NCBI GenBank assembly: GCA_964559475.1 | Contig: CAZLHX010000001.1 | Location: forward strand, 49-64,048 | Direction: 5' to 3' | Length of the DNA: 64,000 bases | Origin: an uncultured Candidatus Bathyarchaeia archaeon | GTDB taxonomy: Archaea; Thermoproteota; Bathyarchaeia; TCS64 | Part shown: piece by piece, positions 32,570 through 47,441 of the stretch | Layout: every line of letters begins with the position of its first letter | How positions within the stretch are numbered: the first letter of the stretch is position 1 | Position numbers and translations under genes: made by a program | Notes under the pieces: generated by a model | What the model was told of the DNA's origin: nothing | The model's input: the letters and a program-made list of their open reading frames with translations, nothing else | Databases searched by the model: none

Positions 32570-33591
32570 AACCAAAAGATAGGGACTTTATCGAAACAAA
32601 GGAAGGATTACTGTTCTGTGTGGTCGGTTATCTTCACCCACCAGACAGAGTTACAGCTTACTTGAAATATATTCCATCTATAGACGGAAAATGGAGTAGA
32701 GGGGAGATTCATTATAATCGGACTTTACAGTTTTATCACGTAGCACAAGTCGAGAAGACGTATAATTACTTAGAAAAAATTTATCCAGACTATCTTTTCA
32801 AAGACCCTGTTAGAAATATAACCATCTCAGCAGTCCCAAAAAATAAGATTAAGCAATATTACAAACCTAAAGAGAGATTACAAGAAATCCTCGAAAAACC
32901 AAAGGATATCCTGGAAAAAAGGATATGTGAAATTATTAAAAAAATTAAAAAATACGTAAATATTGAGGGAAACATTGGAGTAACAGGATCTGTTCTTACA
33001 TGTTCTCATAACCCAAATTTCTCAGACTTAGATTTTACTGTTTATGGATTGAAAAATGTACTGGATCTCAAAAAATCGATACTTTCACTAAAATCAGAAG
33101 GAGAAATTAGGTTCTTATCTTCTGAAGAGCTTGAGACTTGGTGCCACGAACGTGGCAAGAAATTTCCTTTATCGGTAGCTGAATTAAAAAGAATTGCTTC
33201 TAAAAGATGGAATTTCGGGTACTATAAAGATACTTACATCTCATTTCACGCTACAAGAAATGATGAAGAAATCCAAGAAAAGTACGGTGATAATATTTAC
33301 ACACAGATAGGAGAAGTGAAAGGTACCGGGAGAGTAAATGATATATCTGAATCTATGTTTAATCCTGCTATTTATGAAATAAGAGACTCAGAACTCTTGG
33401 ATACTAATAGGAAGGTATCAGAGATTATTTCATTTGAAAGCTTATATGGAGGTCTATTTGAGGTTGATGAAAAGATTGAATTTAAGGGAAAACTTGAGAA
33501 AGTAGAAGGAAAAAAGAAATATTATCGTGTAGTTCTAGGTGGGTCAGGTTCCACTGATAGTTTTATGAAATGGTTTACTCCTCAGGATTAG
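32566..33591 (+). CDS. Pol-beta superfamily nucleotidyltransferase-like protein, paralog 2
   Basis: 341 aa. The NTase signature is GVTGSVLTCSHNPNFSDLDFTVYG. The TTG start overlaps the TGA of the ATP-grasp gene (cTTGA). The 3' end overlaps cdhE by 17 nt. Confidence 0.6.
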   Translation: MKPKDRDFIETKEGLLFCVVGYLHPPDRVTAYLKYIPSIDGKWSRGEIHYNRTLQFYHVAQVEKTYNYLEKIYPDYLFKDPVRNITISAVPKNKIKQYYKPKERLQEILEKPKDILEKRICEIIKKIKKYVNIEGNIGVTGSVLTCSHNPNFSDLDFTVYGLKNVLDLKKSILSLKSEGEIRFLSSEELETWCHERGKKFPLSVAELKRIASKRWNFGYYKDTYISFHATRNDEEIQEKYGDNIYTQIGEVKGTGRVNDISESMFNPAIYEIRDSELLDTNRKVSEIISFESLYGGLFEVDEKIEFKGKLEKVEGKKKYYRVVLGGSGSTDSFMKWFTPQD

Positions 33592-34990
33592 GCACCCATT
33601 TTTCGTCAAGGTACTTAGATATACCCGAGGAATCCATCGGTCCAACCGATACACTCCAACCTGAAAGCTCTCTGATCTCACCACTTAATCTTGCTGATCT
33701 ACCAGGTATTACTAAATGTCTATGGGATACTTTATCTCCGACTTTGTAGTTCGCCAATGCTTCCGCTACTGTATCGGCAGTCATCTTCCTACCAGCTACA
33801 GCACTCTCAACTGACATTCCCTCGCTGTCTATCACCAAAAGATAGCAGTCTATTTTAGCCGATTCAATGTCTGAAGCAACGGTATAGTAAGTTAATGCAA
33901 AGTTTGTCGTGAGTAAAACAGGCGACATTTCATCCGGTTCACCCATGACCTCCAATCCAGGTTCAACCGAGACAGGCTTTCTTGGATCCGTGTAAATGTT
34001 TGAGCGAAGTATTACTTGGGGTAGTAAAGCCCATCCACTTATACCATGAACCACCAAGGCATCAGTGAATCTGGTTATACATAATGCTGCAAGAGCGGCT
34101 TCATTCCATTCATTTATCAAAGGATCTTCCTCTTCTATTGCCCAGGCAGCCATGGGGGCACTCAATATTGGGTAGCCTAAGTGTTCCTCTTCATCATTTA
34201 TCGACTGCCATCTAAGTACCGTGAAGTTTTCTACGTTTGCTGACTGGTACATGTTAGGTTCAGTACCTGGGTCAAGAATTATATCCTCTATACCGTATTC
34301 TTCCAGTGTATGGGCTATGCTTTTCAGAGTATCTCTATCTTGAGGAGCATATGCTACTAAGGGACAGTTGAACTCAACTGCGAGTTCTGCCATATCACTC
34401 CAATTCGTGGTCGTGGCTCCATGTATTAAGGGACGTTTGTCTCCAACTATTTCTAGTGCTTTCCTCATACCTGCTGGTTCATGATTACAGAGGATCAATG
34501 GTTTTCTGGTTAATTCGCTAGCTCTCTCAACTGCTTTTGAAAAGATTTCAGGATCTTCACTGGTGCTGGTTATTGCTAGCATATCCAAGGTTAATTCCAT
34601 TCCAATGTATTCGTATCTAAAGTCATTTAGTATATTTATTCGTAACTCAAATTCATCGTCACTCATCTCATCACTGACATGGACCGCGATAGCAGGCTCA
34701 TGGAAGTAGGTGAACTCATGTCTATAAAGCACATATTCTCCACCGAGGGTTACTGTATCTTCTCCAGTGCCTACTTCGATGGCTTTGACTGCTGGTTTTA
34801 ATAAATTCCATAAGTCCTCATATTTATCATTATTTTCGGGGGTAAGCAGTGGTTCACATTCATCAAGTAATGCTTCCCTGTTTACTAGTTTAGCGGCGAA
34901 TGCCATGCAGTTTGCTTCTCCGCATTCTTTGCAGTTAGTCCTAGGAAGTTTCTGGTAGATCTCTATGGGGCTTAATTCTTTGGCTGGCAT
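33575..34990 (-). CDS. cdhE: CODH/ACS gamma subunit (corrinoid Fe-S protein large subunit)
   Basis: 471 aa. The N-terminal 4Fe-4S motif is LPRTNCKECGEANCMAFA. Confidence 0.9.
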   Translation of the reverse strand: MPAKELSPIEIYQKLPRTNCKECGEANCMAFAAKLVNREALLDECEPLLTPENNDKYEDLWNLLKPAVKAIEVGTGEDTVTLGGEYVLYRHEFTYFHEPAIAVHVSDEMSDDEFELRINILNDFRYEYIGMELTLDMLAITSTSEDPEIFSKAVERASELTRKPLILCNHEPAGMRKALEIVGDKRPLIHGATTTNWSDMAELAVEFNCPLVAYAPQDRDTLKSIAHTLEEYGIEDIILDPGTEPNMYQSANVENFTVLRWQSINDEEEHLGYPILSAPMAAWAIEEEDPLINEWNEAALAALCITRFTDALVVHGISGWALLPQVILRSNIYTDPRKPVSVEPGLEVMGEPDEMSPVLLTTNFALTYYTVASDIESAKIDCYLLVIDSEGMSVESAVAGRKMTADTVAEALANYKVGDKVSHRHLVIPGRSARLSGEIRELSGWSVSVGPMDSSGISKYLDEKWVPNPEE

Positions 34991-35001
34991 ACCATTTCCT
35001 C

Positions 35002-36327
35002 CTATACTTTTATCCTAACCCAGTCCGTGGGCTCGGGGGGTCTCTCTCCTTTCATAAGATTGTCTATTGTATTGCTGATGCTGTTAACTGCAGCTGGATG
35101 CATCATCATGAAGTAATCAACTCCTGCTAACAACAACGTTTGTGCTGTCACGGTTTCCCATATAGGTCCTCTGAGTTCACGGGGGGCAAATTCTGGGCCC
35201 ATTTTCATCCATGCTTCTCTTGCTGCCCAAGCATTAGTTGAACCAGATGATAGTGGGTGGTTTAACTCTGGATCTCCTTTAAGTGCTGCTAGTCTACATC
35301 GTTCCATCACGGTAAAAGCATAATCTAGACCGTATCCGAGGGCTGCCGTTGTGGTGTCCATTAATATCTGTTCTTTTTCTACGAAATCGTATAGTTTCCG
35401 GTTTAACTCCCTTGCCTTGTTTACGTCCATGCTCGTGAAGGCAATTACTGTGTTATTATAATCCCTTACCAGTTTGGCTGTTTCCTCAATCTTCATGTCC
35501 AATGTTACTGAGTTGAATAATAGGTTCTCTCCTTGGACATTCTCTGATATTGCTTTGAAAACTTCAAAATCTTTCTGTGGGTCTCCACATCCTCCTATAC
35601 TTATGGGCACGTCAACTGCTTCAACGACCTGTTCTACTGTCTTTACAGCTTCTTTTGGTGGTGCATCTTCTATTAGTGGATCTATAGTTAGAAGGTGTAC
35701 GTTAACCATTTCTGCTCCGTATTTCTCCACACATACACGTGACCACTCAGCCACATCATCTTTATATTCATCAAAGTGATTACGCACTGCTCTCGCGAGA
35801 CTGATCTTAGGCCAATCGAATACGTCAAGAGCGATTACTGGCTTATTAGGAGTGAGCTGTATAAAATTATAGAAAGCTGGAACCTTTTCTCCCCCAATAA
35901 CATAGGAGACTGAGCGGGTTCCACCTTCAGAAGATGTTGCTCCTAGCTTTACCTCAACTACTTCTCCTGGATACTCAGGAGTGGGCATACTTGCTTCATC
36001 TTGAAGTAGTTTATCAGGTTTGACTCTTTCTGGTGCCCTGTGTTGAATTTGTGTTTGTTGAACCTGTTGAGACATTGGCATGGAGGGAGCGCCAAGGAGA
36101 CTTGCCATTCTATTGGCTGAATCTCTAATTAACGCAAACTCATATCCAAGTCTAGCAAGTATGGGAGAGGATATTCCTCCGCTTCCAGCTTGGACATCAA
36201 ACTCTATCTCCTCGAGTTCGACGTCAAATTCTTCGAGTTCTACTTCCTCAAATTTTGCTATTTTTTCTAGTAAATCCCTACTAATAACTAGGTCTAGTTT
36301 ATCTTTTTCAGTCAACCTGGTCCTCAC
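35002..36327 (-). CDS. cdhD: CODH/ACS delta subunit (corrinoid Fe-S protein small subunit)
   Basis: 441 aa with a TIM-barrel pterin-binding-like C-terminal part. It occupies the expected operon position between cdhC and cdhE. Confidence 0.88.
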   Translation of the reverse strand: MRTRLTEKDKLDLVISRDLLEKIAKFEEVELEEFDVELEEIEFDVQAGSGGISSPILARLGYEFALIRDSANRMASLLGAPSMPMSQQVQQTQIQHRAPERVKPDKLLQDEASMPTPEYPGEVVEVKLGATSSEGGTRSVSYVIGGEKVPAFYNFIQLTPNKPVIALDVFDWPKISLARAVRNHFDEYKDDVAEWSRVCVEKYGAEMVNVHLLTIDPLIEDAPPKEAVKTVEQVVEAVDVPISIGGCGDPQKDFEVFKAISENVQGENLLFNSVTLDMKIEETAKLVRDYNNTVIAFTSMDVNKARELNRKLYDFVEKEQILMDTTTAALGYGLDYAFTVMERCRLAALKGDPELNHPLSSGSTNAWAAREAWMKMGPEFAPRELRGPIWETVTAQTLLLAGVDYFMMMHPAAVNSISNTIDNLMKGERPPEPTDWVRIKV

Positions 36328-37760
36328 TCCTTAACTACTTTTATGATTACTTTCTCTGCTTTTATTTTGGCATTTTTTAGGGTAATGCGGATTTTCATAC
36401 CCGAAGGTAATCCAGGCATAGATTGAGCTGGTAGCTGCATCGTCGGCATTGTAAAAGTAGATGGCATCTGTTGCATTTGATGGAATTGTTGCATTTGTTG
36501 TGGGGCTGATGGTTCTTCTTTAAGGGCTTCTTCCGTTTCTTCTGGCCATCTGTCTACGATTGGGTGTTCCTTCTCCTGTAACCAGCTCTCTAAGGTATCG
36601 AGGTCCATGGCATCATCTTCAGTGGTGATCTTTGATTTAATCTCCTCGGGTATGAATTCTTCAACTCTGCTCATTATATCCTTAGGCATCCAGACTATTC
36701 GGTCCCATCCTCCATCTGCCTGTAAGAATTTTGGGCTTCTCATATACTCAATGCTGAGGCCGTGGAATCCATCGACCTGTCTACCTCCAGCTGTCAGATC
36801 ACTTATAGTAACGAATGTGAGGCCGTTTACAGTCTCACCTTTATAATTTCTATCAACTATTCCAAATCCATCTACCTCAGGAATATAGAAAGCGCAGCCT
36901 TCAAAGCAGCCACAGCTGGTATGTGGGTATCCGAATGCGGTGTATAGTTGTACTCTTTCGATCTCTCCCAAGCTCTTATCTTGAATAACTTGATTTACTT
37001 CAGCGTATTCACCCGTTAGATCATCTAAAAGCTCTCCCTTAGGTATAGAAAAGACTGGTCCTTTTGGATCAACTTTTTCAGTGGCTCTTCCGTCGAACCA
37101 GCTTATAGCTCCACAGTTAGCGTACCTCTGAGGTGTAATGACGCATAGATGGGTTGGTGCAAAGCTCTGGCATAGACTGCATCCGTAGAATACGTCCACC
37201 TCATCGTCGCTCATTCCTCGGGCGCGTGCATCTCTTGCCTCGTAGATCTCCATAGCTTCATCGTATAATTCTTTTAATTTGTCTAAATCTGTGATAAACG
37301 TGATCTGCATTTTCTCAATAAATGGCATCTCACTCTTGTACAGTCTCATTAAGACTTCTCCGAACATCTTGAAGCTGTTAAATCCCTTCTGATAGCTCTT
37401 TTTACTTAACCTCATCTGGATGTCATACCTTTGATTAAGGTGCATGAATCCTTCGATGAAGTTTACGTACTCATGAAGTCTTCTCTCAATGACTCCTTCC
37501 AGATCCTTTTCAATCTCTTCCCCTGCAACTTCAATTATCATACCGAAAGGAGAGTTGGTTCCTTCAGGTAGTTCTGAGATATCTTTTCCAACTATCTCGA
37601 ATTTACCATCCTCAATATCATCCATACCCTTGGCTGTAACAAGTTCAAACTTGTAATCCTCTCTTGGACCACCGAGTTCGACTTGCATGTCTCTTCCACG
37701 GATTCTCTCACCCTCATAAATAATTCCAACATCTACAGGGATATCATCAAATAAACTCAT
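36324..37760 (-). CDS. cdhC: CODH/ACS beta subunit (acetyl-CoA synthase, A-cluster)
   Basis: 478 aa. Cluster motifs are CSLCQSFAPTHLCVITP, ANCGAISW and TSCGCFE. An archaeal-type Q/M/P-rich C-terminal extension is present. Confidence 0.93.
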   Translation of the reverse strand: MSLFDDIPVDVGIIYEGERIRGRDMQVELGGPREDYKFELVTAKGMDDIEDGKFEIVGKDISELPEGTNSPFGMIIEVAGEEIEKDLEGVIERRLHEYVNFIEGFMHLNQRYDIQMRLSKKSYQKGFNSFKMFGEVLMRLYKSEMPFIEKMQITFITDLDKLKELYDEAMEIYEARDARARGMSDDEVDVFYGCSLCQSFAPTHLCVITPQRYANCGAISWFDGRATEKVDPKGPVFSIPKGELLDDLTGEYAEVNQVIQDKSLGEIERVQLYTAFGYPHTSCGCFEGCAFYIPEVDGFGIVDRNYKGETVNGLTFVTISDLTAGGRQVDGFHGLSIEYMRSPKFLQADGGWDRIVWMPKDIMSRVEEFIPEEIKSKITTEDDAMDLDTLESWLQEKEHPIVDRWPEETEEALKEEPSAPQQMQQFHQMQQMPSTFTMPTMQLPAQSMPGLPSGMKIRITLKNAKIKAEKVIIKVVKE

Positions 37761-38305
37761 TTCTTAGCCTCCTCTAAGTTTGTAATAATCTCATCTAATT
37801 CCTCTTGCCATTTTTTATTTGGCGTGGACCCCATTGACCATTGCGCATTAGGTTGATATGAATTACTTAACGACATGGTTTTAAGATCAGGAGCGAAGTT
37901 TTTTAGCCCTGATAGTACAAGCCACTCCATATAATAGGGTGCACCTGCAAATAGTATAAGGTCATATTGTCCGTTTCCATCAAAACCATTCCAAGTGGGA
38001 TCCCTTAAACGGTCTCCTAGATTCATCATGGGCATACTCTGAACCATTGTACCTCTTTCTTTAAAATCTTTGATCAGATGGCCTGTAGCTGCTACGGTAA
38101 TTTTTCCAATTTTCTGTAATCTTATAGCAGTATCTATCAAGTCTCCATCTTTGGTAGATATATTTGGTGATTCTGAGCCAATAACCAAGAGGGGTCGCTC
38201 TGATTTCTTGATCATGGAAGCTGCCACTTTAGGGTTTGGTATCACAAATGCTTTTTTTGGACCCGCTATTTCCGCAGTCTGACCTGTCCTCATTTTTGCA
38301 GACAT
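37757..38305 (-). CDS. cdhB: CODH/ACS epsilon subunit
   Basis: 182 aa. Its size and its position immediately after cdhA (1-nt overlap) fit. Confidence 0.85.
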   Translation of the reverse strand: MSAKMRTGQTAEIAGPKKAFVIPNPKVAASMIKKSERPLLVIGSESPNISTKDGDLIDTAIRLQKIGKITVAATGHLIKDFKERGTMVQSMPMMNLGDRLRDPTWNGFDGNGQYDLILFAGAPYYMEWLVLSGLKNFAPDLKTMSLSNSYQPNAQWSMGSTPNKKWQEELDEIITNLEEAKK

Positions 38306-40650
38306 TAATCCCGTCTCCTAATCATTCTATCGAGTAGGGTAGGATCAGGCATACCAATCTTTCCTTCTTCCCAACCAGTATCTTCGAGTATTCCAAGTAT
38401 TTCCTCTTTCATCGTGAATGGAAGATCAGCCTCTCTTCTAACATAAAGATGTAAGTCATCAGGCATAGTATCATAATATCTTTTGTGAAGATCGATGTAA
38501 TGGCTTATCTTGACAGCTCTGCCTTTTGAAGTATCATTAGGCCGCATAGTTAATTTAGCTGCCATAACCATTGCTTCCTCTAGAGTTTCAGCTGCGTAAA
38601 ATAGGTGTTCAGGGGAAGGCCCAACATACATTTCCTCACCCGTCCTAGCATCATAAGTTATCCAATCTTCATCTTTATCTTTTCTTCCAAGAAGGTTTCT
38701 TCGGTATTTTGACCCATGTGGACCGACGATAACAGGTATCCCGAGTCTCCAGCAACCCGCGGCTATACTTGCAGCTTTCTGTGACATCGCCCCCCAAGCT
38801 ATACCTACGGCTCCAACACGATTATAGACATAATCAGCAATTTCCTCATAGTTAGCTCTTAATGATCGCTTAGCAAAGATATTTGCTATCTTTATTGTTG
38901 CTCCAGTTATATGCGCATTTGATACACAGCTTCCGATATTCACGAGACCTCCCGCGTCGAAGTACCCAGGGAACTTCTCGTAGAGGTTTTGACCTTCCTC
39001 ATCTTTTGTTAACGCAATATCCATAGCTGAGCAACCTGTAGCCAATACAATGAACCTTCGTTTCAAGAACTCCTCGGCTATCTTCGCAACCTCTTCTCCT
39101 CCTTTAGGATAATTTGCACATCCTACAAGTGCAACCACTCCTGGAATCTCTCCGAAAACTATTGCCCTTCCTACTTCACGAATTTCAACATCTGTGACGG
39201 CTCCTCGTCCAACCCTAATTGGATATTTTTCTGCTGTTTTCAGTTCAGTTGACGCTCTATAAAGAAAACTAACTAGCGGTATTCCTTCCGGACATGCACT
39301 CTCACATCGTCCACATCCAACACAGTAATCCTGAAGCTCGGCTAATGGTGCTAAGTTTCCTTCTCTTGCAGCCTGTACAGCATCCATTATTGGTAGACTA
39401 TTTGGACAAGCTCTGACACATTCCATGCAGTTTCTACACGTCTCTGCCAGTTCGAAGAGTTGTTCTTTTGAGAATGCCTTGAATTCTTTTCTCTTAGGAG
39501 CCATTTTTAGTGCAGTTTTTACAACTACCTCTCCAACTTTCTTAGGTTCGATTATTAATACCCCTGGGGTTTTCCCTTCCACTAAATCGTTAACTATTTC
39601 ATCAGGTGGATCATGTGTTCTGTTGGGAAGCCCTAACATGCTTTTTTCGCTTGTTGCGATTACTGGGGCACCAATTTTCCTTGCCTCATCAACAATATCT
39701 GTTCTTAAACATTGTTCATCTACGACTACGACATCTGGTATTCCGGATCTTATGTATCTTAGTTGCCAAGATATTGGTCCCATTATTTTTGCTCTTTTAT
39801 CATATCTGCTATTATCATGGGCTGTACAACATAATCCACCTACTTCTACTTCTCCAAAAAGCCCATTTTCCATTAAATAGTCGATTATGTCAACGCTTGG
39901 AAGAACATTGTGACCAATACACATGATAACTGTTTTTGATGGATCAATCGCACCAAACCCGATATCAGTCATAGGTGGATCAGCCACACCTTTAGGCATA
40001 TTTAGTGTGGATATCTGACAAATATCGGCAACTTCCATTGCTACATGGTCAAGCATACCTGCATGGAAGGCTTTCGACTCAAAATCTATATTATCACCCT
40101 CCTGTCCAGTATGGGCTGCAGCGGTTAATTGTACAAGCTGTGTTTCAACATAATCCAGAGCATCTTCGAGGTCGCTTAGTGTTCTAGGACGTATTCCACA
40201 TACAAGTCTTGTATTTGGTGCTTCCACATTTGTATTAACCGCGATATCTAACACATGATCTCGACCGTATTCTTCTAACAGGTGTTCAAGCATATGTCTT
40301 GCATGGGCACAGTGTGTTGATGCTCCTATACAACATGCAAGTAGAACAATTCTGGATTGTTGTCCAGCCATTGTTATTCCACAAGCACCTTTCTTGTCTG
40401 CTGTTAAATCACATTTCCCGAAGGTACACAGACAACAAAGGTCACAGAAAGGCATGTAAAAGGGCTTATACCTGTTGAGAAGTTTTAGATCCCACTCTCT
40501 GAGAGTACCAACTGAAGGCATAGGAGTTGGCCCCATGGGTTCTTCCCATTCTTCATCAATTATTTTTCCGATCTGTATGTCAAGTCCTTTGAAGACACCT
40601 AAATCTGATTTAAGCTCATCAATTTTTAGTCTTAGATCTTTTTTAGCCAA
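38305..40650 (-). CDS. cdhA: CODH/ACS alpha subunit (Ni-CODH catalytic subunit with inserted 2x[4Fe-4S] ferredoxin domain)
   Basis: 781 aa with PMGPTPMPS, CDLCCLCTFGKCDL and a ferredoxin insert (CRNCMECVRACP...CVGCGRCESACP). TTG start with GGAG 8 nt upstream. Confidence 0.93.
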   Translation of the reverse strand: MAKKDLRLKIDELKSDLGVFKGLDIQIGKIIDEEWEEPMGPTPMPSVGTLREWDLKLLNRYKPFYMPFCDLCCLCTFGKCDLTADKKGACGITMAGQQSRIVLLACCIGASTHCAHARHMLEHLLEEYGRDHVLDIAVNTNVEAPNTRLVCGIRPRTLSDLEDALDYVETQLVQLTAAAHTGQEGDNIDFESKAFHAGMLDHVAMEVADICQISTLNMPKGVADPPMTDIGFGAIDPSKTVIMCIGHNVLPSVDIIDYLMENGLFGEVEVGGLCCTAHDNSRYDKRAKIMGPISWQLRYIRSGIPDVVVVDEQCLRTDIVDEARKIGAPVIATSEKSMLGLPNRTHDPPDEIVNDLVEGKTPGVLIIEPKKVGEVVVKTALKMAPKRKEFKAFSKEQLFELAETCRNCMECVRACPNSLPIMDAVQAAREGNLAPLAELQDYCVGCGRCESACPEGIPLVSFLYRASTELKTAEKYPIRVGRGAVTDVEIREVGRAIVFGEIPGVVALVGCANYPKGGEEVAKIAEEFLKRRFIVLATGCSAMDIALTKDEEGQNLYEKFPGYFDAGGLVNIGSCVSNAHITGATIKIANIFAKRSLRANYEEIADYVYNRVGAVGIAWGAMSQKAASIAAGCWRLGIPVIVGPHGSKYRRNLLGRKDKDEDWITYDARTGEEMYVGPSPEHLFYAAETLEEAMVMAAKLTMRPNDTSKGRAVKISHYIDLHKRYYDTMPDDLHLYVRREADLPFTMKEEILGILEDTGWEEGKIGMPDPTLLDRMIRRRD

Positions 40651-40664
40651 AATTCCATCTCCTT

Positions 40665-40681
40665 ATCACGTTTAACGTGAT
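40665..40681. promoter_or_regulatory. 17-nt palindrome atcacgtt-t-aacgtgat between a TATA-like element and the cdhA ribosome-binding site (candidate operator or 5' UTR hairpin)
   Basis: Read from the sequence in the 146-bp divergent cdhA/metF intergenic region. On the cdhA strand the order is ctataaat, then the palindrome, then aaGGAGatgg, then TTG. Confidence 0.35.
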
Positions 40682-40796
40682 TTATAGCATTTGTTATTTA
40701 TAATATGTATGAAACCTTTGATTCATATATTTTTCAATAAAAAAATAAACAAATAATTCTAAAAACCACCGTGTATCTAAGAGTGTGTGATGTCAA

Positions 40797-41720
40797 ATGA
40801 CTCAAAGACCGGCTTATAGTCAGTTAGTAAAGGATATTCGGAAGGGTAAATTTGTTCTAACAGGTGAACTTGAGCCAGAGAAGGTAACTAGCCTAGAAGA
40901 AATTATTCACAGTGCTAAAGCAATGAAACCTTACGTAGTCGCTGCAAACGTAACAGATAACCCATTAGCATATGCCTACATGAACAGTCTAATACCATCT
41001 TGGAAAGTTCAAGAAGAAGTAGGACTCGAGACAGTCTATCAAGTGACTGTAAGAGACCGTAATCGCCTAGCATTAACTTCTGATATTCTTGCAGCAGCTC
41101 ATCTTGGTATTAAAAATGTTCTCGCGCTTTCTGGAGATCATACAGTACTGGGAGATAACAGACAAGCTAATTCAGTGTACGATATTGATTCGGCTCAGTT
41201 CGTATACTTATTAGGTAAAATGATTGACGAAGGTGAAGATCTCGCAGGCAACGAAATTCATGGAGATGTAAATATTAACGTGGGTATTGCGGCAAACCCT
41301 AACGCCAATCCTTTGATGCCTGAAGTCCTTAAAATTGGTAGGAAGACGAAGATTGGATCAGATTTTATACAAACCCAGACCATGTTCGATATCGATAGGA
41401 CAAAAGAATTTCTGAAAGAAATGGAGAAGTATAAAACACCAGTATTGGTAGGTATATTCCCACTCAAAGGATTCACCATCGCTGACTTTTTTGATAAGTA
41501 TATACCTGGAGTGTCTGTTCCTCAGGAGTTAATGGAGAACATGTATAAAGCCAAACAAGAACCTGACTCTGAGATTCGTAAACAAAAATATGATGAGGTA
41601 AACCTAGAATTCTTCAGGCCATTCATTAAAGAGATACATAAAACAACTCATGCAGCTGGTATACACGTAATGGCTGTATTATATGAAAGAATCTTTGACC
41701 CGTTATTGGAGGCTTTCTAA
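40797..41720 (+). CDS. metF: Methylenetetrahydrofolate reductase-like protein (acetogen-type MetF)
   Basis: 307 aa with a TIM-barrel MTHFR fold (VLTGELEP, VTDNP, LALSGDH, FIQTQ). Confidence 0.85.
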   Translation: MTQRPAYSQLVKDIRKGKFVLTGELEPEKVTSLEEIIHSAKAMKPYVVAANVTDNPLAYAYMNSLIPSWKVQEEVGLETVYQVTVRDRNRLALTSDILAAAHLGIKNVLALSGDHTVLGDNRQANSVYDIDSAQFVYLLGKMIDEGEDLAGNEIHGDVNINVGIAANPNANPLMPEVLKIGRKTKIGSDFIQTQTMFDIDRTKEFLKEMEKYKTPVLVGIFPLKGFTIADFFDKYIPGVSVPQELMENMYKAKQEPDSEIRKQKYDEVNLEFFRPFIKEIHKTTHAAGIHVMAVLYERIFDPLLEAF

Positions 41721-41721
41721 G

Positions 41722-42357
41722 ATGATAATTACTGAGCAAAAACCCTTTGAAAAAGTCTCAGAGATGATTGATCAATACAAAAAGATCTTCATCGTGGGAT
41801 GTGGAACCTGCAGCACCAGTTGTCAGACTGGTGGAGAAGAAGAAGTCAAAGAGATGGCTGAAAAACTAGGAGACAGAGTAAACGGATGGGCCATGGTAGA
41901 GGACCCATGTGACTTAAGGCTTGACCGCAGAGATCTAAGAGACTATAAAAAGGAGATTGCTGAATCTGATGCAGTCTTAGTTATGGCATGTGGTGCAGGC
42001 GTTCAGACTGTAAGTGATTTCACTAAAAAGATAACATTACCGGCTCTAAATACGCTATTCATCGGTCAGACTGAGAGACTTGGAAAATTCCATGATACCT
42101 GTAAGGCTTGTGGAGACTGTATCCTCGATGAAACAGGGGGAGTCTGCCCCATTACCAGGTGCGCTAAAGGTCTGTTGAATGGTCCCTGTGGAGGACAGGT
42201 AGATGGAAAATGCGAGGTAGGGGACTATGAGAACGAGTGCGCGTGGATACAGATCTATGATAGATTGGAAGAACAAGGTAGACTGGATCTTTTCACAACA
42301 TTCAGACCACCAAGAGACTTCTCTAAAAAGACTCTGAAAATGCACCACTATTTCTAA
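41722..42357 (+). CDS. metV: MetV-like Cys-rich MTHFR-associated subunit
   Basis: About 211 aa from the ATG at 41722, 1 nt after the metF stop. Cys clusters are GCGTCSTSC, CKACGDC, CPITRCAKGLLNGPCGG and KCE..x..ECAW. Confidence 0.8.
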   Translation: MIITEQKPFEKVSEMIDQYKKIFIVGCGTCSTSCQTGGEEEVKEMAEKLGDRVNGWAMVEDPCDLRLDRRDLRDYKKEIAESDAVLVMACGAGVQTVSDFTKKITLPALNTLFIGQTERLGKFHDTCKACGDCILDETGGVCPITRCAKGLLNGPCGGQVDGKCEVGDYENECAWIQIYDRLEEQGRLDLFTTFRPPRDFSKKTLKMHHYF

Positions 42358-42899
42358 TCCACTAATATATTTTTTAGAGCTTTTTTTATCTTATCAGGAC
42401 TCTCTAATACAGATATTCCATCCATTTCTTCAAGTTTTCTGACATTCAGCACATCTTCTTTTCTTACTCTCAACCTCAAAGTTTTTCCGTTAGGAAGAAC
42501 TGTTACCGTTTCTCCTTCGCGGAAGTCAGTAGGCATAATATAAACAGGAACATATCCCTTTATGCCTTGTATAATAGCATTTGTAAGAAGAGTATCAGAT
42601 ATTCCAACAGCAATTTTTGCCACTGTATTGCTCGTTGCGGGGGCAATTAAAAGTAAGTCGAACTCCTTCATCTGTAGACGACCGGTTAGAAATGGTGTAT
42701 TTGCATCTTTTTCTATCCAAACCTTATCAAAAGAGGCCCCCAAATCCTCGTAAATTTTGTAGTATTTTGATACAAGGTAACCAGCTTCCGATAAATAAAT
42801 CTCTACAATTAATTGTTTTTCTTGTTTGATGCTCTTTAAAATTTCAACTGTTTCTAGAAGTTTATCTCCTCCGCCAGTTATCCCCCAAGCAATCTTCAT
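42354..42899 (-). CDS. Archaeal flavoprotein AfpA/DmrB-like (PF02441-type flavoprotein)
   Basis: 181 aa with KIAWGITGGGD and LLIAPATSNTVAKIAVGISDTLLTNA. Its stop codon overlaps the metV stop codon on the opposite strand. Confidence 0.7.
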   Translation of the reverse strand: MKIAWGITGGGDKLLETVEILKSIKQEKQLIVEIYLSEAGYLVSKYYKIYEDLGASFDKVWIEKDANTPFLTGRLQMKEFDLLLIAPATSNTVAKIAVGISDTLLTNAIIQGIKGYVPVYIMPTDFREGETVTVLPNGKTLRLRVRKEDVLNVRKLEEMDGISVLESPDKIKKALKNILVD

Positions 42900-43534
42900 C
42901 TACTATTCTCCAAGTATTCGATTAGATGTTTTACAGTTTTATTCACAGTTTTCATGCCATATTTATCCTGTTTTATTCCTTCCATGGAATCCTTTGACCA
43001 TAAGGATGCCCCAAGATTGGCGCCATATGCTCCACCGCTCAAGGGAATTGCCTCAGTTAGTAGGTAAAAAGAGTGGAGCTGAAGTAATGCTAATTCTTGT
43101 CCTCCTGCCCGGTCCCCGCCTACTGCAATTGCTATACATGGTTTATTTTTTAATGCCTCAGGGTTTTTGGAGAATAGTGCTCTGGTTCTATCTAAGACTG
43201 CTTTGAGTTGTGCACTTACTCCTCCGTTGTATACAGGGGTTGCCATTATTATGGCTTCAGCTTCCTCAATCATAGGATAAAGATCCTGTATATCATCTTT
43301 GATGATACATTTTTTCTCTTTTAGACAAAAATCACAATGTATACAAAACCCGATTTTTTTACCCTTTACACTCCAGAATACTGTATCATATCCTTCATCT
43401 TCAAGGGTGATCAATGATTTTTTAAGTACATATTCTGTTGTTCTTGCTCTGGGGCTACCACATAACCCGAGGATCATAAGAATTCTATCACTCCGGGAGG
43501 TAAAATATTTACTAAAATCAGGATTCAAATACAT
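42896..43534 (-). CDS. Iron-sulfur flavoprotein (Isf-like NADPH-dependent FMN reductase fold with a compact Cys cluster)
   Basis: 212 aa with ILGLCGSPR and the cluster motif CIHCDFCLKEKKC. Confidence 0.7.
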   Translation of the reverse strand: MYLNPDFSKYFTSRSDRILMILGLCGSPRARTTEYVLKKSLITLEDEGYDTVFWSVKGKKIGFCIHCDFCLKEKKCIIKDDIQDLYPMIEEAEAIIMATPVYNGGVSAQLKAVLDRTRALFSKNPEALKNKPCIAIAVGGDRAGGQELALLQLHSFYLLTEAIPLSGGAYGANLGASLWSKDSMEGIKQDKYGMKTVNKTVKHLIEYLENSR

Positions 43535-46062: not shown

Positions 46063-46911
46063 TCAGGAGTAACTTGGTAGAACCTCTGAGACGAAGTCTT
46101 CCATTGATTTCTCAATTGTTTCACGTGGAAAAGCTATTGTGAAGTAGGTTGCAACAAAGTTGAGTGCATCCTCGATCCTATTTATTATCTCTTGTCTTTT
46201 GTATTGTTGTGATCCCATATATCCGAGCATGAATTCTACATCGTTTACTCGATTGTATATCTCGGCTGACTCAAGTACAGTCTTTTTAATCTCGTCCCCC
46301 CTTTCTTCAGCCCATGGCGGAATAAAGCAAATATGTCCGTATTTTCCTGTTAGTTTTAGCATGCGTTTTCCCTGACTCCCAAACAGTAATTGAGGATACG
46401 GTTCCTGAACGGGTTTGGGTTGGAGCACGGCTTTTTTGATGTTATAGAATTTACTGCTGGAGGTTACTTCATCTTCAGCCCAGAGTCGGGTCATGATCTC
46501 TAATGCTTCTATAGTCTTATCTACTCGGTATTTTGCGTCTCCCCATTTGCTATATCCCTCGAATTCAACTTTTGACCAGCCAGCCCCAACCCCTAGAACC
46601 ACTCGACCTTTTGATAAAATATCTAAAGTGGATAATCGTTTAGCCAAGATTCCGGGGTGCCTAAAAGGCAAAGGAGATACAAGGGTACCTAATTTGATTT
46701 GGCTTGTTTTTCCTGCCAGATAGGAAAGTGTTGTCCAAGTCTCAAGAGTATTATATGGATTTTCCATACTATGACCGATCTCTGGACCCCACATATAGTG
46801 GTCGGGCATTAAGGCTCCATCCAGACATAGCTGGTCTGCCTTTATAACAGAGTTGATAATATGTTCTTTGTTTTCAGCTAGGTTTCCTAGCCCTGTTAAG
46901 AAGAAATTCAT
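46063..46911 (-). CDS. LLM-class (luciferase-like) flavin/F420-dependent oxidoreductase
   Basis: 282 aa with MPDHY, KLGTLVSPLPFRHP and LSTLDILSKGRVVLGVGAGW. Confidence 0.8.
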   Translation of the reverse strand: MNFFLTGLGNLAENKEHIINSVIKADQLCLDGALMPDHYMWGPEIGHSMENPYNTLETWTTLSYLAGKTSQIKLGTLVSPLPFRHPGILAKRLSTLDILSKGRVVLGVGAGWSKVEFEGYSKWGDAKYRVDKTIEALEIMTRLWAEDEVTSSSKFYNIKKAVLQPKPVQEPYPQLLFGSQGKRMLKLTGKYGHICFIPPWAEERGDEIKKTVLESAEIYNRVNDVEFMLGYMGSQQYKRQEIINRIEDALNFVATYFTIAFPRETIEKSMEDFVSEVLPSYS

Positions 46912-46997
46912 ATAATCGGATTAGAAGAGATTGGGTTATTTAAGGAGTGTAATCTTGAAGACATAAATATCATTAGACATGAATATTCTTGATTGAA

Positions 46998-47441
46998 ATG
47001 AAAAAAGCACTGGTATTGTTTCACTCGCAGCAGTATGGTAATACTGAGTTGATGGCTAGAGCTGTTGGGGAAGGCTTTAGGGAGGCTGGATTGGAGGTTG
47101 TGCTTCATAATACGAATGATCTGAGGTTCGATATAGAGGATTTTCCTCAATATGAATGCGTTGCCTTCGGTACTCCGGATTATTTCAGCTATATTGCGGG
47201 CACAATGAAAACTTTCATGGATGACTGGTATCTTAATAGGAATGAGCCTGGGTATACTGGTAAACCTTACGTCATATTTTACACCCACGGGGGCGGAGGA
47301 AGAGTCCGAGATCATCTTGACCTATTCAGTAGAGTTGGTGATCAAGTTGGACAGGCAGTTGAGTCCAGAGGAAAACCAACAAAAAGCGTCTTGGAAAAAT
47401 GCAGGGAATTAGGTAAAGAACTAGGAAAGACAGTTAGATAG
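46998..47441 (+). CDS. Flavodoxin-like protein
   Basis: The N-terminus KKALVLFHSQQYGNTE is an FMN phosphate loop. About 147 aa from the ATG at 46998. Confidence 0.8.
   Translation: MKKALVLFHSQQYGNTELMARAVGEGFREAGLEVVLHNTNDLRFDIEDFPQYECVAFGTPDYFSYIAGTMKTFMDDWYLNRNEPGYTGKPYVIFYTHGGGGRVRDHLDLFSRVGDQVGQAVESRGKPTKSVLEKCRELGKELGKTVR

Follow-up and report, generated by a model that had tools for sequence, protein, structure and literature searches.

A MetF-MetV pair facing the CODH/ACS operon of a Bathyarchaeia archaeon may reduce methylene-tetrahydromethanopterin alongside Mer

Which one-carbon carrier does an archaeal reductase of the MetF-MetV type serve when the same genome also encodes a canonical Mer? 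The question is raised by a metF-metV pair in a 64,000-nucleotide stretch of DNA (hereafter the window; positions 49 to 64,048 of contig CAZLHX010000001.1, assembly GCA_964559475.1) from an uncultured Candidatus Bathyarchaeia archaeon, where the pair stands divergent from cdhABCDE, the genes for carbon monoxide dehydrogenase/acetyl-CoA synthase (CODH/ACS). A preliminary description of this DNA had read the pair as a bacterial or acetogen-type enzyme in an organism devoid of Mer and Mtd, and proposed that it reduces methylene-tetrahydromethanopterin (methylene-H4MPT). At stake is whether archaeal MetVF acts on methanopterin-bound one-carbon (C1) units. The comparisons presented here lead us to a modified reading, which we consider somewhat probable, in which MetFV is a ferredoxin-type, iron-sulfur-fed two-subunit reductase of methylene-H4MPT that works alongside F420-dependent Mer; since a canonical mer lies in the same genome, MetFV would be an addition to Mer and not its substitute.

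The family assignments of the pair are borne out by profile searches. The metF product matches PF02219 (methylenetetrahydrofolate reductase, MTHFR) with 98.9 bits against a cut-off of 24 over residues 13–297 and is the sole MTHFR in a profile search of the whole genome, and the metV product matches PF12225/DUF5981 (‘MTHFR C-terminal’) with 119.8 bits. The two genes are translationally coupled: metF ends in TAA at 41718–41720 and is followed by a single G and the metV ATG at 41722, with GGAGG at 41708–41712; the metV frame opens at 41683 and the internal ATG at 41722 was taken as its real start. An E. coli-type NAD(P)H-dependent MetF (TIGR00676) was rejected at 54.5 bits against a cut-off of 293.7. 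In an alignment of 12 diverse archaeal MetF proteins, E24 and E26 (TGELEP), D114 (SGDH) and Q192-T193-Q194 (QTQ) are invariant, and by motif we take these to be the equivalents of E. coli Glu28, Asp120 and Gln183. The E. coli numbering of catalytic-acid and pterin-binding residues follows PMC11094777. MetV has 13 cysteines, 12 of which are invariant among 98 distinct archaeal MetV sequences and fall into three groups of four, a pattern in keeping with the zinc and the pair of [4Fe-4S] clusters described for acetogen MetV. An AlphaFold model of MetV (predicted local distance difference test score, 81.7) gave no significant match to folds in the PDB, the best being generic Rossmann-like lobes with E about 6e-3, and the idea that its N-terminal half is an MvhD-like module is accordingly unsupported. 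Sequence searches of the PDB returned no MetV relatives and only distant MTHFR relatives, and an archaeal MetF-pterin complex usable as a reference was not found there.

The setting of the pair points to the CODH/ACS. The 146-bp region shared with cdhA is as the preliminary description gave it, and among 34 related loci in Bathyarchaeia, at 75–84% identity, about 25 have cdhDCBA facing metF-metV; because it recurs in this way, the layout is not due to chance. Alignment of 18 distinct intergenic regions, those of the window and 17 relatives, revealed two conserved A/T-rich boxes, one for each gene direction: TTTATA(A) facing cdhA, and (T)TCTAAAAA or CTTAAAA facing metF about 35–45 nt before its ATG. 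These look like back-to-back archaeal TATA boxes and would presumably serve as promoter elements. A perfect palindrome, ATCACGTT-T-AACGTGAT, lies at 40665–40681 just 5′ of the cdhA start codon and is absent from the 17 related intergenic regions. A scan for sigma-70 promoters and terminators gave counts equal to those of shuffled sequence, the sigma-70 model being uninformative for an archaeon.

The premise of an organism without Mer and Mtd fails when the search is extended beyond the window. The genome (G000) comprises 2.76 Mb in 197 contigs and is 96% complete and 7.7% contaminated. Profile searches over all of it gave no match to mer, mtd, hdrA or mvhD inside the window, in keeping with the preliminary description, and placed those for Mer and Mtd solely on contigs C158, C23 and C39 and those for HdrA and MvhD solely on C7, C31 and C5. 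A canonical mer is at C158:1458–2432 (414.8 bits, cut-off 348.7), a Mer-like paralog is on C23, and an F420-type mtd is at C39:9761–10600 (334 bits). The length of C158, 4.5 kb, prompted three tests of its mer for contamination. The gene is native, since the tetranucleotide profile of the contig lies within the genome's own spread, the same Mer recurs in 7 of 11 other congeneric genomes, and the order mer, 103-aa open reading frame, lrp is that of relatives in which these genes stand beside metFV (L036, L095); contamination is thereby ruled out. The gene mcrA was not found in the genome.

Markers of a folate pathway are also present in part. C39 carries fhs and folD as an operon divergent from mtd (C39:7121–10600, L052), with Fhs scoring 759.9 bits and so exceeding its cut-off, and folC is present with 383.6 bits. 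Two C1-carrier systems thus adjoin on C39, where an adenosylhomocysteinase gene is found about 4 kb from fhs-folD. Canonical FolP was found neither in the window's genome nor in the 12 genomes of the genus, dihydrofolate reductase (DHFR) is encoded in none of those 12, and none has a pterin-binding domain of the AcsE or MetH type; PF00809 finds at most one weak MptH-like match in each, which in the window's genome is the methanopterin-cluster gene. The preliminary description had regarded canonical mer and mtd together with complete folate biosynthesis as the sign of an ordinary folate role for MetF. Both mer and mtd are indeed in the genome, and so are Fhs, FolD and FolC, but folate biosynthesis is incomplete by the markers used because FolP and DHFR were not found. 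A consumer of methyl-tetrahydrofolate (methyl-H4F) is thus apparently missing from the genus, which would support an H4MPT role.

The label ‘bacterial/acetogen-type’ holds for the architecture of the pair and not for its sequence. An alignment-based scan with one genome per species gave 575 MetF relatives, the best 80 of which are archaeal apart from a few in MAGs labelled bacterial: Bathyarchaeia come first, the nearest loci all being from Bathyarchaeia metagenome-assembled genomes (MAGs) at 75–84% MetF identity, followed at 50–56% by Ca. Syntrophoarchaeum (55%), Asgard lineages (Atabey-, Borr-, Baldr-, Jord-, Frey-, Thor- and Promethearchaeota) and Altiarchaeota. In both trees all MetF proteins with the order metF-then-metV form one clade nested among metV-then-metF sequences (FastTree with 119 rows: 34 rows, support 99; IQ-TREE in quick mode with 77 thinned rows: 15 rows, SH-aLRT 100). 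The root was placed with the E. coli-like MTHFR of Bathyarchaeia genome G137 and with Chadwick et al. 2022 (PMC9012536); the trees were built without characterised bacterial MetF or ANME-1 sequences, and the link to ANME-1 rests on the same paper. Chadwick et al. grouped MetF of ANME-1 and Syntrophoarchaeum in one clade with sequences from uncultured archaea, Bathyarchaeota among them, in which MetF is always found beside MetV, and proposed H4MPT use for it. Judged by these sequence relationships, the window's MetF belongs to this archaeal MetVF clade and, within it, to a cdhA-adjacent subclade of inverted gene order.

Several observations on the wider family were made in passing. Single-polypeptide MetV-MetF fusions of 541–550 aa form tree groups of their own, and several adjoin cdhE/cdhD (L069, L070, L080, L151, L152, L166, L174). 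An MTHFR-like protein of about 290 aa, about 25% identical to MetF, occurs in genomes of the same genus or family that have neither Mer nor MetV (L099/G138, L100/G108; also G147). Contigs with archaeal-clade metFV or metVF turn up in MAGs labelled Krumholzibacteriaceae (L038/L115) and, at loci L114, L138 and L172, in others labelled Patescibacteria, Pirellulales and Nanopelagicaceae; the first carries archaeal cdhDCBA and afpA-isf beside metFV, that labelled Pirellulales has hdrA and mtd beside two metVF pairs, and the remaining two hold the metF-metV or metV-metF pair only. These bacterial labels are probably binning errors.

The distribution of MetV bears most directly on the identity of the pterin. 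Across a fixed sample of 151 Bathyarchaeia genomes, Mch occurs in 118, MTHFR in 74, FolD in 59, MetV in 56, canonical Mer in 44 and Fhs in 34, the last almost entirely in the window's family (f1) and in family f3. The Mch-bearing genomes divide into 17 with Mer and MetV, 20 with Mer only, 34 with MetV only and 47 with neither. Mch accompanies MetV in 51 of 56 genomes; neither Fhs nor FolD is present in 33 of these 56, and Mch is present in 30 of the 33. Outside the window's family, the 40 MetV-bearing genomes include 37 with Mch, 7 with FolD and one with Fhs. Class-wide, MetVF tracks the methanopterin pathway and not the folate enzymes. In genus g3, of the window's family, and in genus g10, of family f3, Fhs and FolD are retained although both MetF and MetV are absent, and Fhs and FolD therefore do not need MetFV; the reverse case is given by G006, a sister of the window's subclade, which has the same cdh-facing metFV layout without Fhs or FolD.

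Gene context tells a similar story. A co-directional series fwdDBAC-mch-(polyferredoxin-MvhD)-metV-metF is found in several families, and 21 of the 66 metV-then-metF genes have mtd no more than 6 kb away. Bathyarchaeia share with Atabey-, Baldr-, Jord- and Freyarchaeia a recurrent cluster of metV-metF, lrp, a small open reading frame and mer, often with mtd. Of the 32 distinct MetF sequences in the window's own subclade, 19 are encoded within 6 kb of cdhA, and in relatives that have only Mer (genera g3 and g10) the order is small open reading frame-mer-cdhABCDE, mer standing immediately 5′ of cdhA in the same orientation. G132 (L095) has lrp, the small open reading frame, mer, an inverted metV-metF and cdhABC in that order. 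The position 5′ of cdhA is thus taken by mer, metFV or both, as is expected of two enzymes acting on one step that feeds CODH/ACS, and we regard this as the most telling of the comparisons. Together these comparisons favour methylene-H4MPT as the probable substrate of MetFV, and it is in this sense, and not as a replacement for Mer, that the earlier proposal of H4MPT use finds comparative support.

Two details of these loci may be recorded separately. The recurrent cluster encodes an Lrp/AsnC regulator and a conserved protein of about 100 aa, and at some loci two metVF pairs flank mer (cluster loci L128, L139, L142, L143, L171 and L173, and in Bathyarchaeia L079, L085, L087, L089, L140, L145, L146, L149 and L157). 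At the Mer-only loci (L177–L179, L181 and L182, from G065, G030, G012, G096 and G070), mer apparently leads the enzyme genes of the CODH/ACS operon.

The mechanism we propose assigns the chemistry to MetF, a flavin-bearing TIM-barrel subunit in which the methylene group would be reduced at the conserved Glu/Asp/Gln site, and the electron supply to MetV, which would pass electrons singly via metal centres bound by its three four-cysteine groups. Neither NAD(P)H nor F420 would serve as donor; electrons would come from reduced ferredoxin, for example ferredoxin reduced by the CODH, or from a flavodoxin-like carrier. Methylene- and methyl-H4MPT would be the substrate pair, and the methyl-H4MPT formed would pass to the CODH/ACS encoded across the shared intergenic region. 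Beside Mer, MetFV would then offer a second way through this step, one independent of F420 and more strongly driven.

Several points weigh against this proposal. With a canonical Mer the H4MPT route can run without MetFV, while Fhs, FolD and FolC together with MetFV make up a formally complete folate-type methyl branch, and in the window's family Fhs and FolD are close to universal (25 and 26 of 27 genomes). None of the sequence features examined separates tetrahydrofolate (H4F) from H4MPT binding, an assay of any archaeal MetVF was not found in the literature searched, and ferredoxin as the physiological donor is disputed even in acetogens (PMC8760232). The presence of Mer, Fhs, FolD and FolC also gives substance to a folate-specific enzyme, in which Fhs, FolD and MetFV would carry formate to methyl-H4F for CODH/ACS or methionine synthesis and Mer would serve a separate H4MPT branch. 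Every assayed MetVF uses H4F, the acetogen metVF too sits in an acs cluster, and Fhs, FolD and MetF have been described as a ‘bacterial’ Wood-Ljungdahl set in Bathy-3, -8 and -17 (PMC7886697). However, fhs-folD is on another contig beside mtd and away from metFV, the two kinds of gene occur without each other in genera g3 and g10 and in G006, and the majority of MetV-bearing Bathyarchaeia have neither Fhs nor FolD; the genus lacks detectable FolP, DHFR and AcsE/MetH-type pterin-binding methyltransferases, and its CODH/ACS is of the archaeal CdhABCDE type. We regard folate specificity as possible though rather unlikely. A purely anabolic pair, which would maintain a small methyl-pterin pool for methionine and S-adenosylmethionine-dependent methylation while lying beside cdh incidentally, seems to us very improbable: the Methanosarcinaceae MetFV has been assigned to H4F-dependent biosynthesis (PMC9012536) and the adenosylhomocysteinase gene on C39 would fit such a role, but the widespread retention of the cdh-metFV layout, the presence of mer in the same slot in sister lineages, and a context unlike the folP-folD-glyA-purN of Methanosarcinaceae all argue otherwise.

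With methylene-H4MPT reduction by a MetVF fed from iron-sulfur centres as the favoured reading, the source of its electrons can be narrowed. The preliminary description had left the donor open, noting that no hdrA or mvhD is adjacent; the latter is correct, as the surroundings of metFV are free of RnfC2, Hdr and MvhD genes, and donors are known from the literature for a comparable enzyme. Each heterodimer of the two-subunit MetFV of C. ljungdahlii has flavin mononucleotide (FMN) and about 8 Fe; the enzyme neither bifurcates nor uses NAD(P)H, and its donors are reduced ferredoxin (91 U/mg), flavodoxin (22 U/mg) and thioredoxin (7 U/mg) (PMC8515935, PMC8760232). By analogy, ferredoxin reduced by the neighbouring CODH would be the simplest donor, and the flavodoxin encoded in the window is a candidate low-potential donor, its linkage to metFV not being kept in relatives. 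A dedicated partnership with the adjacent AfpA and Isf-like flavoproteins is weakly indicated, because afpA, accompanied by the Isf-like gene in the same relatives, adjoins metV only in the closest of them (7 of 32 metF-then-metV loci).

The contrasting possibility is that MetFV docks in trans on an HdrA-MvhD fusion or an Mvh-type hydrogenase and is coupled to bifurcation or H2, as in the Hdr-type enzyme of Moorella, and not to free ferredoxin. The genome has a cluster at C7:21800–33840 that encodes an Mvh-like NiFe hydrogenase, three HdrA-MvhD fusions (765–798 aa) and one further HdrA, and among relatives hdrA flanks metVF in 15 of 66 metV-then-metF loci, others having polyferredoxin-MvhD or NiFe hydrogenase genes. 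In sister genus g2 (L032, L035, L094) a 424-aa polyferredoxin-MvhD-like gene stands between metF and metV, with genes for NiFe hydrogenase large and small subunits and a RACo-like protein downstream, in genomes without Mer; this arrangement may represent a form of the reductase that is coupled to H2. In the window's genus, however, metFV has no gene of this kind linked to it, and the MetV model resembles neither MvhD nor any solved protein. Because the partner genes vary between lineages, the comparison suggests that the input module may be exchangeable and the electron inputs interchangeable. We consider docking in trans improbable for the window's enzyme.

Why, then, keep two enzymes for one step? 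The methylene-/methyl-H4MPT couple has a potential near -320 mV, close to that of F420, and Mer is therefore expected to operate close to equilibrium. With ferredoxin as its donor, MetVF would draw the reaction toward methyl-H4MPT and acetyl-CoA independently of F420. For the H4F couple E0′ is -200 mV (PMC8515935). A second, F420-independent route is attractive because the F420-synthesis enzymes CofH and CofD were not found in the window's genome and CofH is rare among Mer-bearing genomes (only 3 of 44); searches for it came back negative for all 28 family members examined, and no more than 15 of the 151 Bathyarchaeia genomes have it. Either F420 or F0 is scavenged, or Mer and Mtd use another cofactor. 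In a published Bathy-8 enrichment MAG, too, F420 synthesis is missing and mer is nevertheless expressed, the organism being dependent on bacteria (PMC10989822); metFV does not appear in the Bathy-8 tables of transcripts and proteins in print, which do include mer and cdh. The notion that MetVF is a bypass that tracks the loss of F420 synthesis is unsupported, with MetV in 8 and Mer in 3 of the 15 CofH-bearing genomes. The lrp-linked clusters, the shared cdhA slot and the lack of CofH in most Mer-bearing Bathyarchaeia point toward Mer and MetVF forming a deliberate two-enzyme node on methylene-/methyl-H4MPT and not redundant alternatives, an idea we put forward as a speculation with a low chance of being right. 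Such a node could let the cell draw either on F420 or on electrons from ferredoxin or Hdr, depending on how much F420, possibly scavenged, is available, and with both enzymes running it could act as a ferredoxin:F420 oxidoreductase with a pterin shuttle.

The genes of the region are listed in Table 1. As the preliminary description had it, mch, fwd and ftr are in the window, each confirmed by search or self-match, and the luciferase-like protein encoded there is not Mer: it scores about 67 bits against the 348.7 needed for TIGR03555 and covers profile positions 34–170 only. Elsewhere in the genome, a second cdhA/cdhC set at C12:18146–26629 is 63–67% identical to that of the window and has a RACo paralog and no metFV, and in the complete relative CP070784 there are two cdhA-metF loci (L028, L029) about 20 kb apart.

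Table 1. Positions of the metF-metV pair, the cdh operon and neighbouring flavoprotein genes in the window
Feature	Position	Strand	Assignment and support
cdhABCDE operon	33575-40650	-	archaeal CODH/ACS; cdhA by TIGR00314, open reading frame list, synteny with relatives
cdhE	33575-34990	-	open reading frame list
cdhD	35002-36327	-	open reading frame list
cdhC	36324-37760	-	open reading frame list
cdhB	37757-38305	-	open reading frame list
cdhA	38305-40650	-	TIGR00314, 1166.7 bits
Divergent putative control region	40651-40796	.	146 bp between cdhA and metF
metF	40797-41720	+	307 aa, MTHFR TIM-barrel catalytic subunit; archaeal MetVF clade, metF-then-metV subclade
metV	41722-42357	+	211 aa, Cys-rich electron-input subunit; three invariant four-Cys groups
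afpA-type archaeoflavoprotein	42354-42899	-	TIGR02699, 245.5 bits, cut-off 192.45; convergent on metV, stop codons overlap
Isf-like FMN reductase-fold flavoprotein	42896-43534	-	PF03358, 104 bits; one operon with afpA
282-aa luciferase-like oxidoreductase	46063-46911	-	TIGR03560 best, 157 bits, below its cut-off
Short flavodoxin	46989-47441	+	PF00258, 41.5 bits

The idea that MetF stands in for Mer, the archaeal MetVF clade and its Bathyarchaeota members have all been published (PMC9012536), and because the substitution and the clade membership are already in print the known picture is unchanged; the new comparisons refine a known hypothesis and open no new one. In the literature searched we found no account of the cdhA-tied metF-then-metV subclade or of the slot it shares with mer, nor of the cross-phylum metVF-lrp-mer cluster or the tendency of MetV, across the class, to accompany Mch but not Fhs or FolD. 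It is these three features that sharpen the hypothesis: MetV follows Mch, mer and metFV share the cdhA slot, and metVF-lrp-mer recurs across phyla. They also correct published maps, in which the MetFV of Bathy-8-type genomes is either passed over or assigned to a ‘bacterial’ folate branch. The lineage offers the enzyme in its simplest form, two subunits without an Hdr module, and is thus suited to heterologous expression and assay.

Among known systems, the pair resembles the two-subunit (type II or ‘2S’) MetVF of the acetogens Clostridium ljungdahlii, C. formicoaceticum, Eubacterium callanderi and Thermoanaerobacter kivui in joining an MTHFR-domain MetF to a Cys-rich DUF5981 MetV, in having adjacent coupled genes with no RnfC2, Hdr or MvhD linked, and in lying beside CODH/ACS. 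It differs in its archaeal clade, in the order metF-then-metV in place of metV-then-metF, in its partner, an archaeal CdhABCDE within a methanopterin/methanofuran supercluster, and in its substrate, probably H4MPT where the acetogen enzymes use H4F. The six-subunit Hdr-type MetFV-HdrABC-MvhD of Moorella thermoacetica shares the MetF/MetV core, and related Bathyarchaeia loci have adjoining hdrA or MvhD-like genes, whereas those of the window's genome lie on C7. The Methanosarcinaceae anabolic H4F cluster, metFV-folP-folD-glyA-purN, is not matched: the neighbours here are cdhA and afpA-isf, folD is on C39, and no FolP was found in the genome.

Also comparable are the MetFV of ANME-1 and Ca. Syntrophoarchaeum, proposed to stand in for Mer (PMC9012536), which belong to the same clade (Syntrophoarchaeum 55% identical) and share the constant pairing with MetV and the association with H4MPT-pathway genes; in contrast to these, the window's genome has Mer, Fhs, FolD and FolC, and its locus has no linked HdrA or MvhD, an inverted gene order and a position facing cdhA. 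Mer itself probably catalyzes the same step, and in sister lineages its gene occupies the same slot at the 5′ end of cdhA, but it belongs to an unrelated family, being a luciferase-like enzyme that takes hydride from F420H2 and has no iron-sulfur subunit. The combination of Mer with an archaeal-clade MetF in one genome has a precedent in Ca. Alkanophaga, where mer and metF are both transcribed (PMC10322722); that organism is of another phylum, oxidizes alkanes with Acr and has no reported cdh linkage, whereas the pair described here faces the CODH/ACS operon that its product would probably feed.

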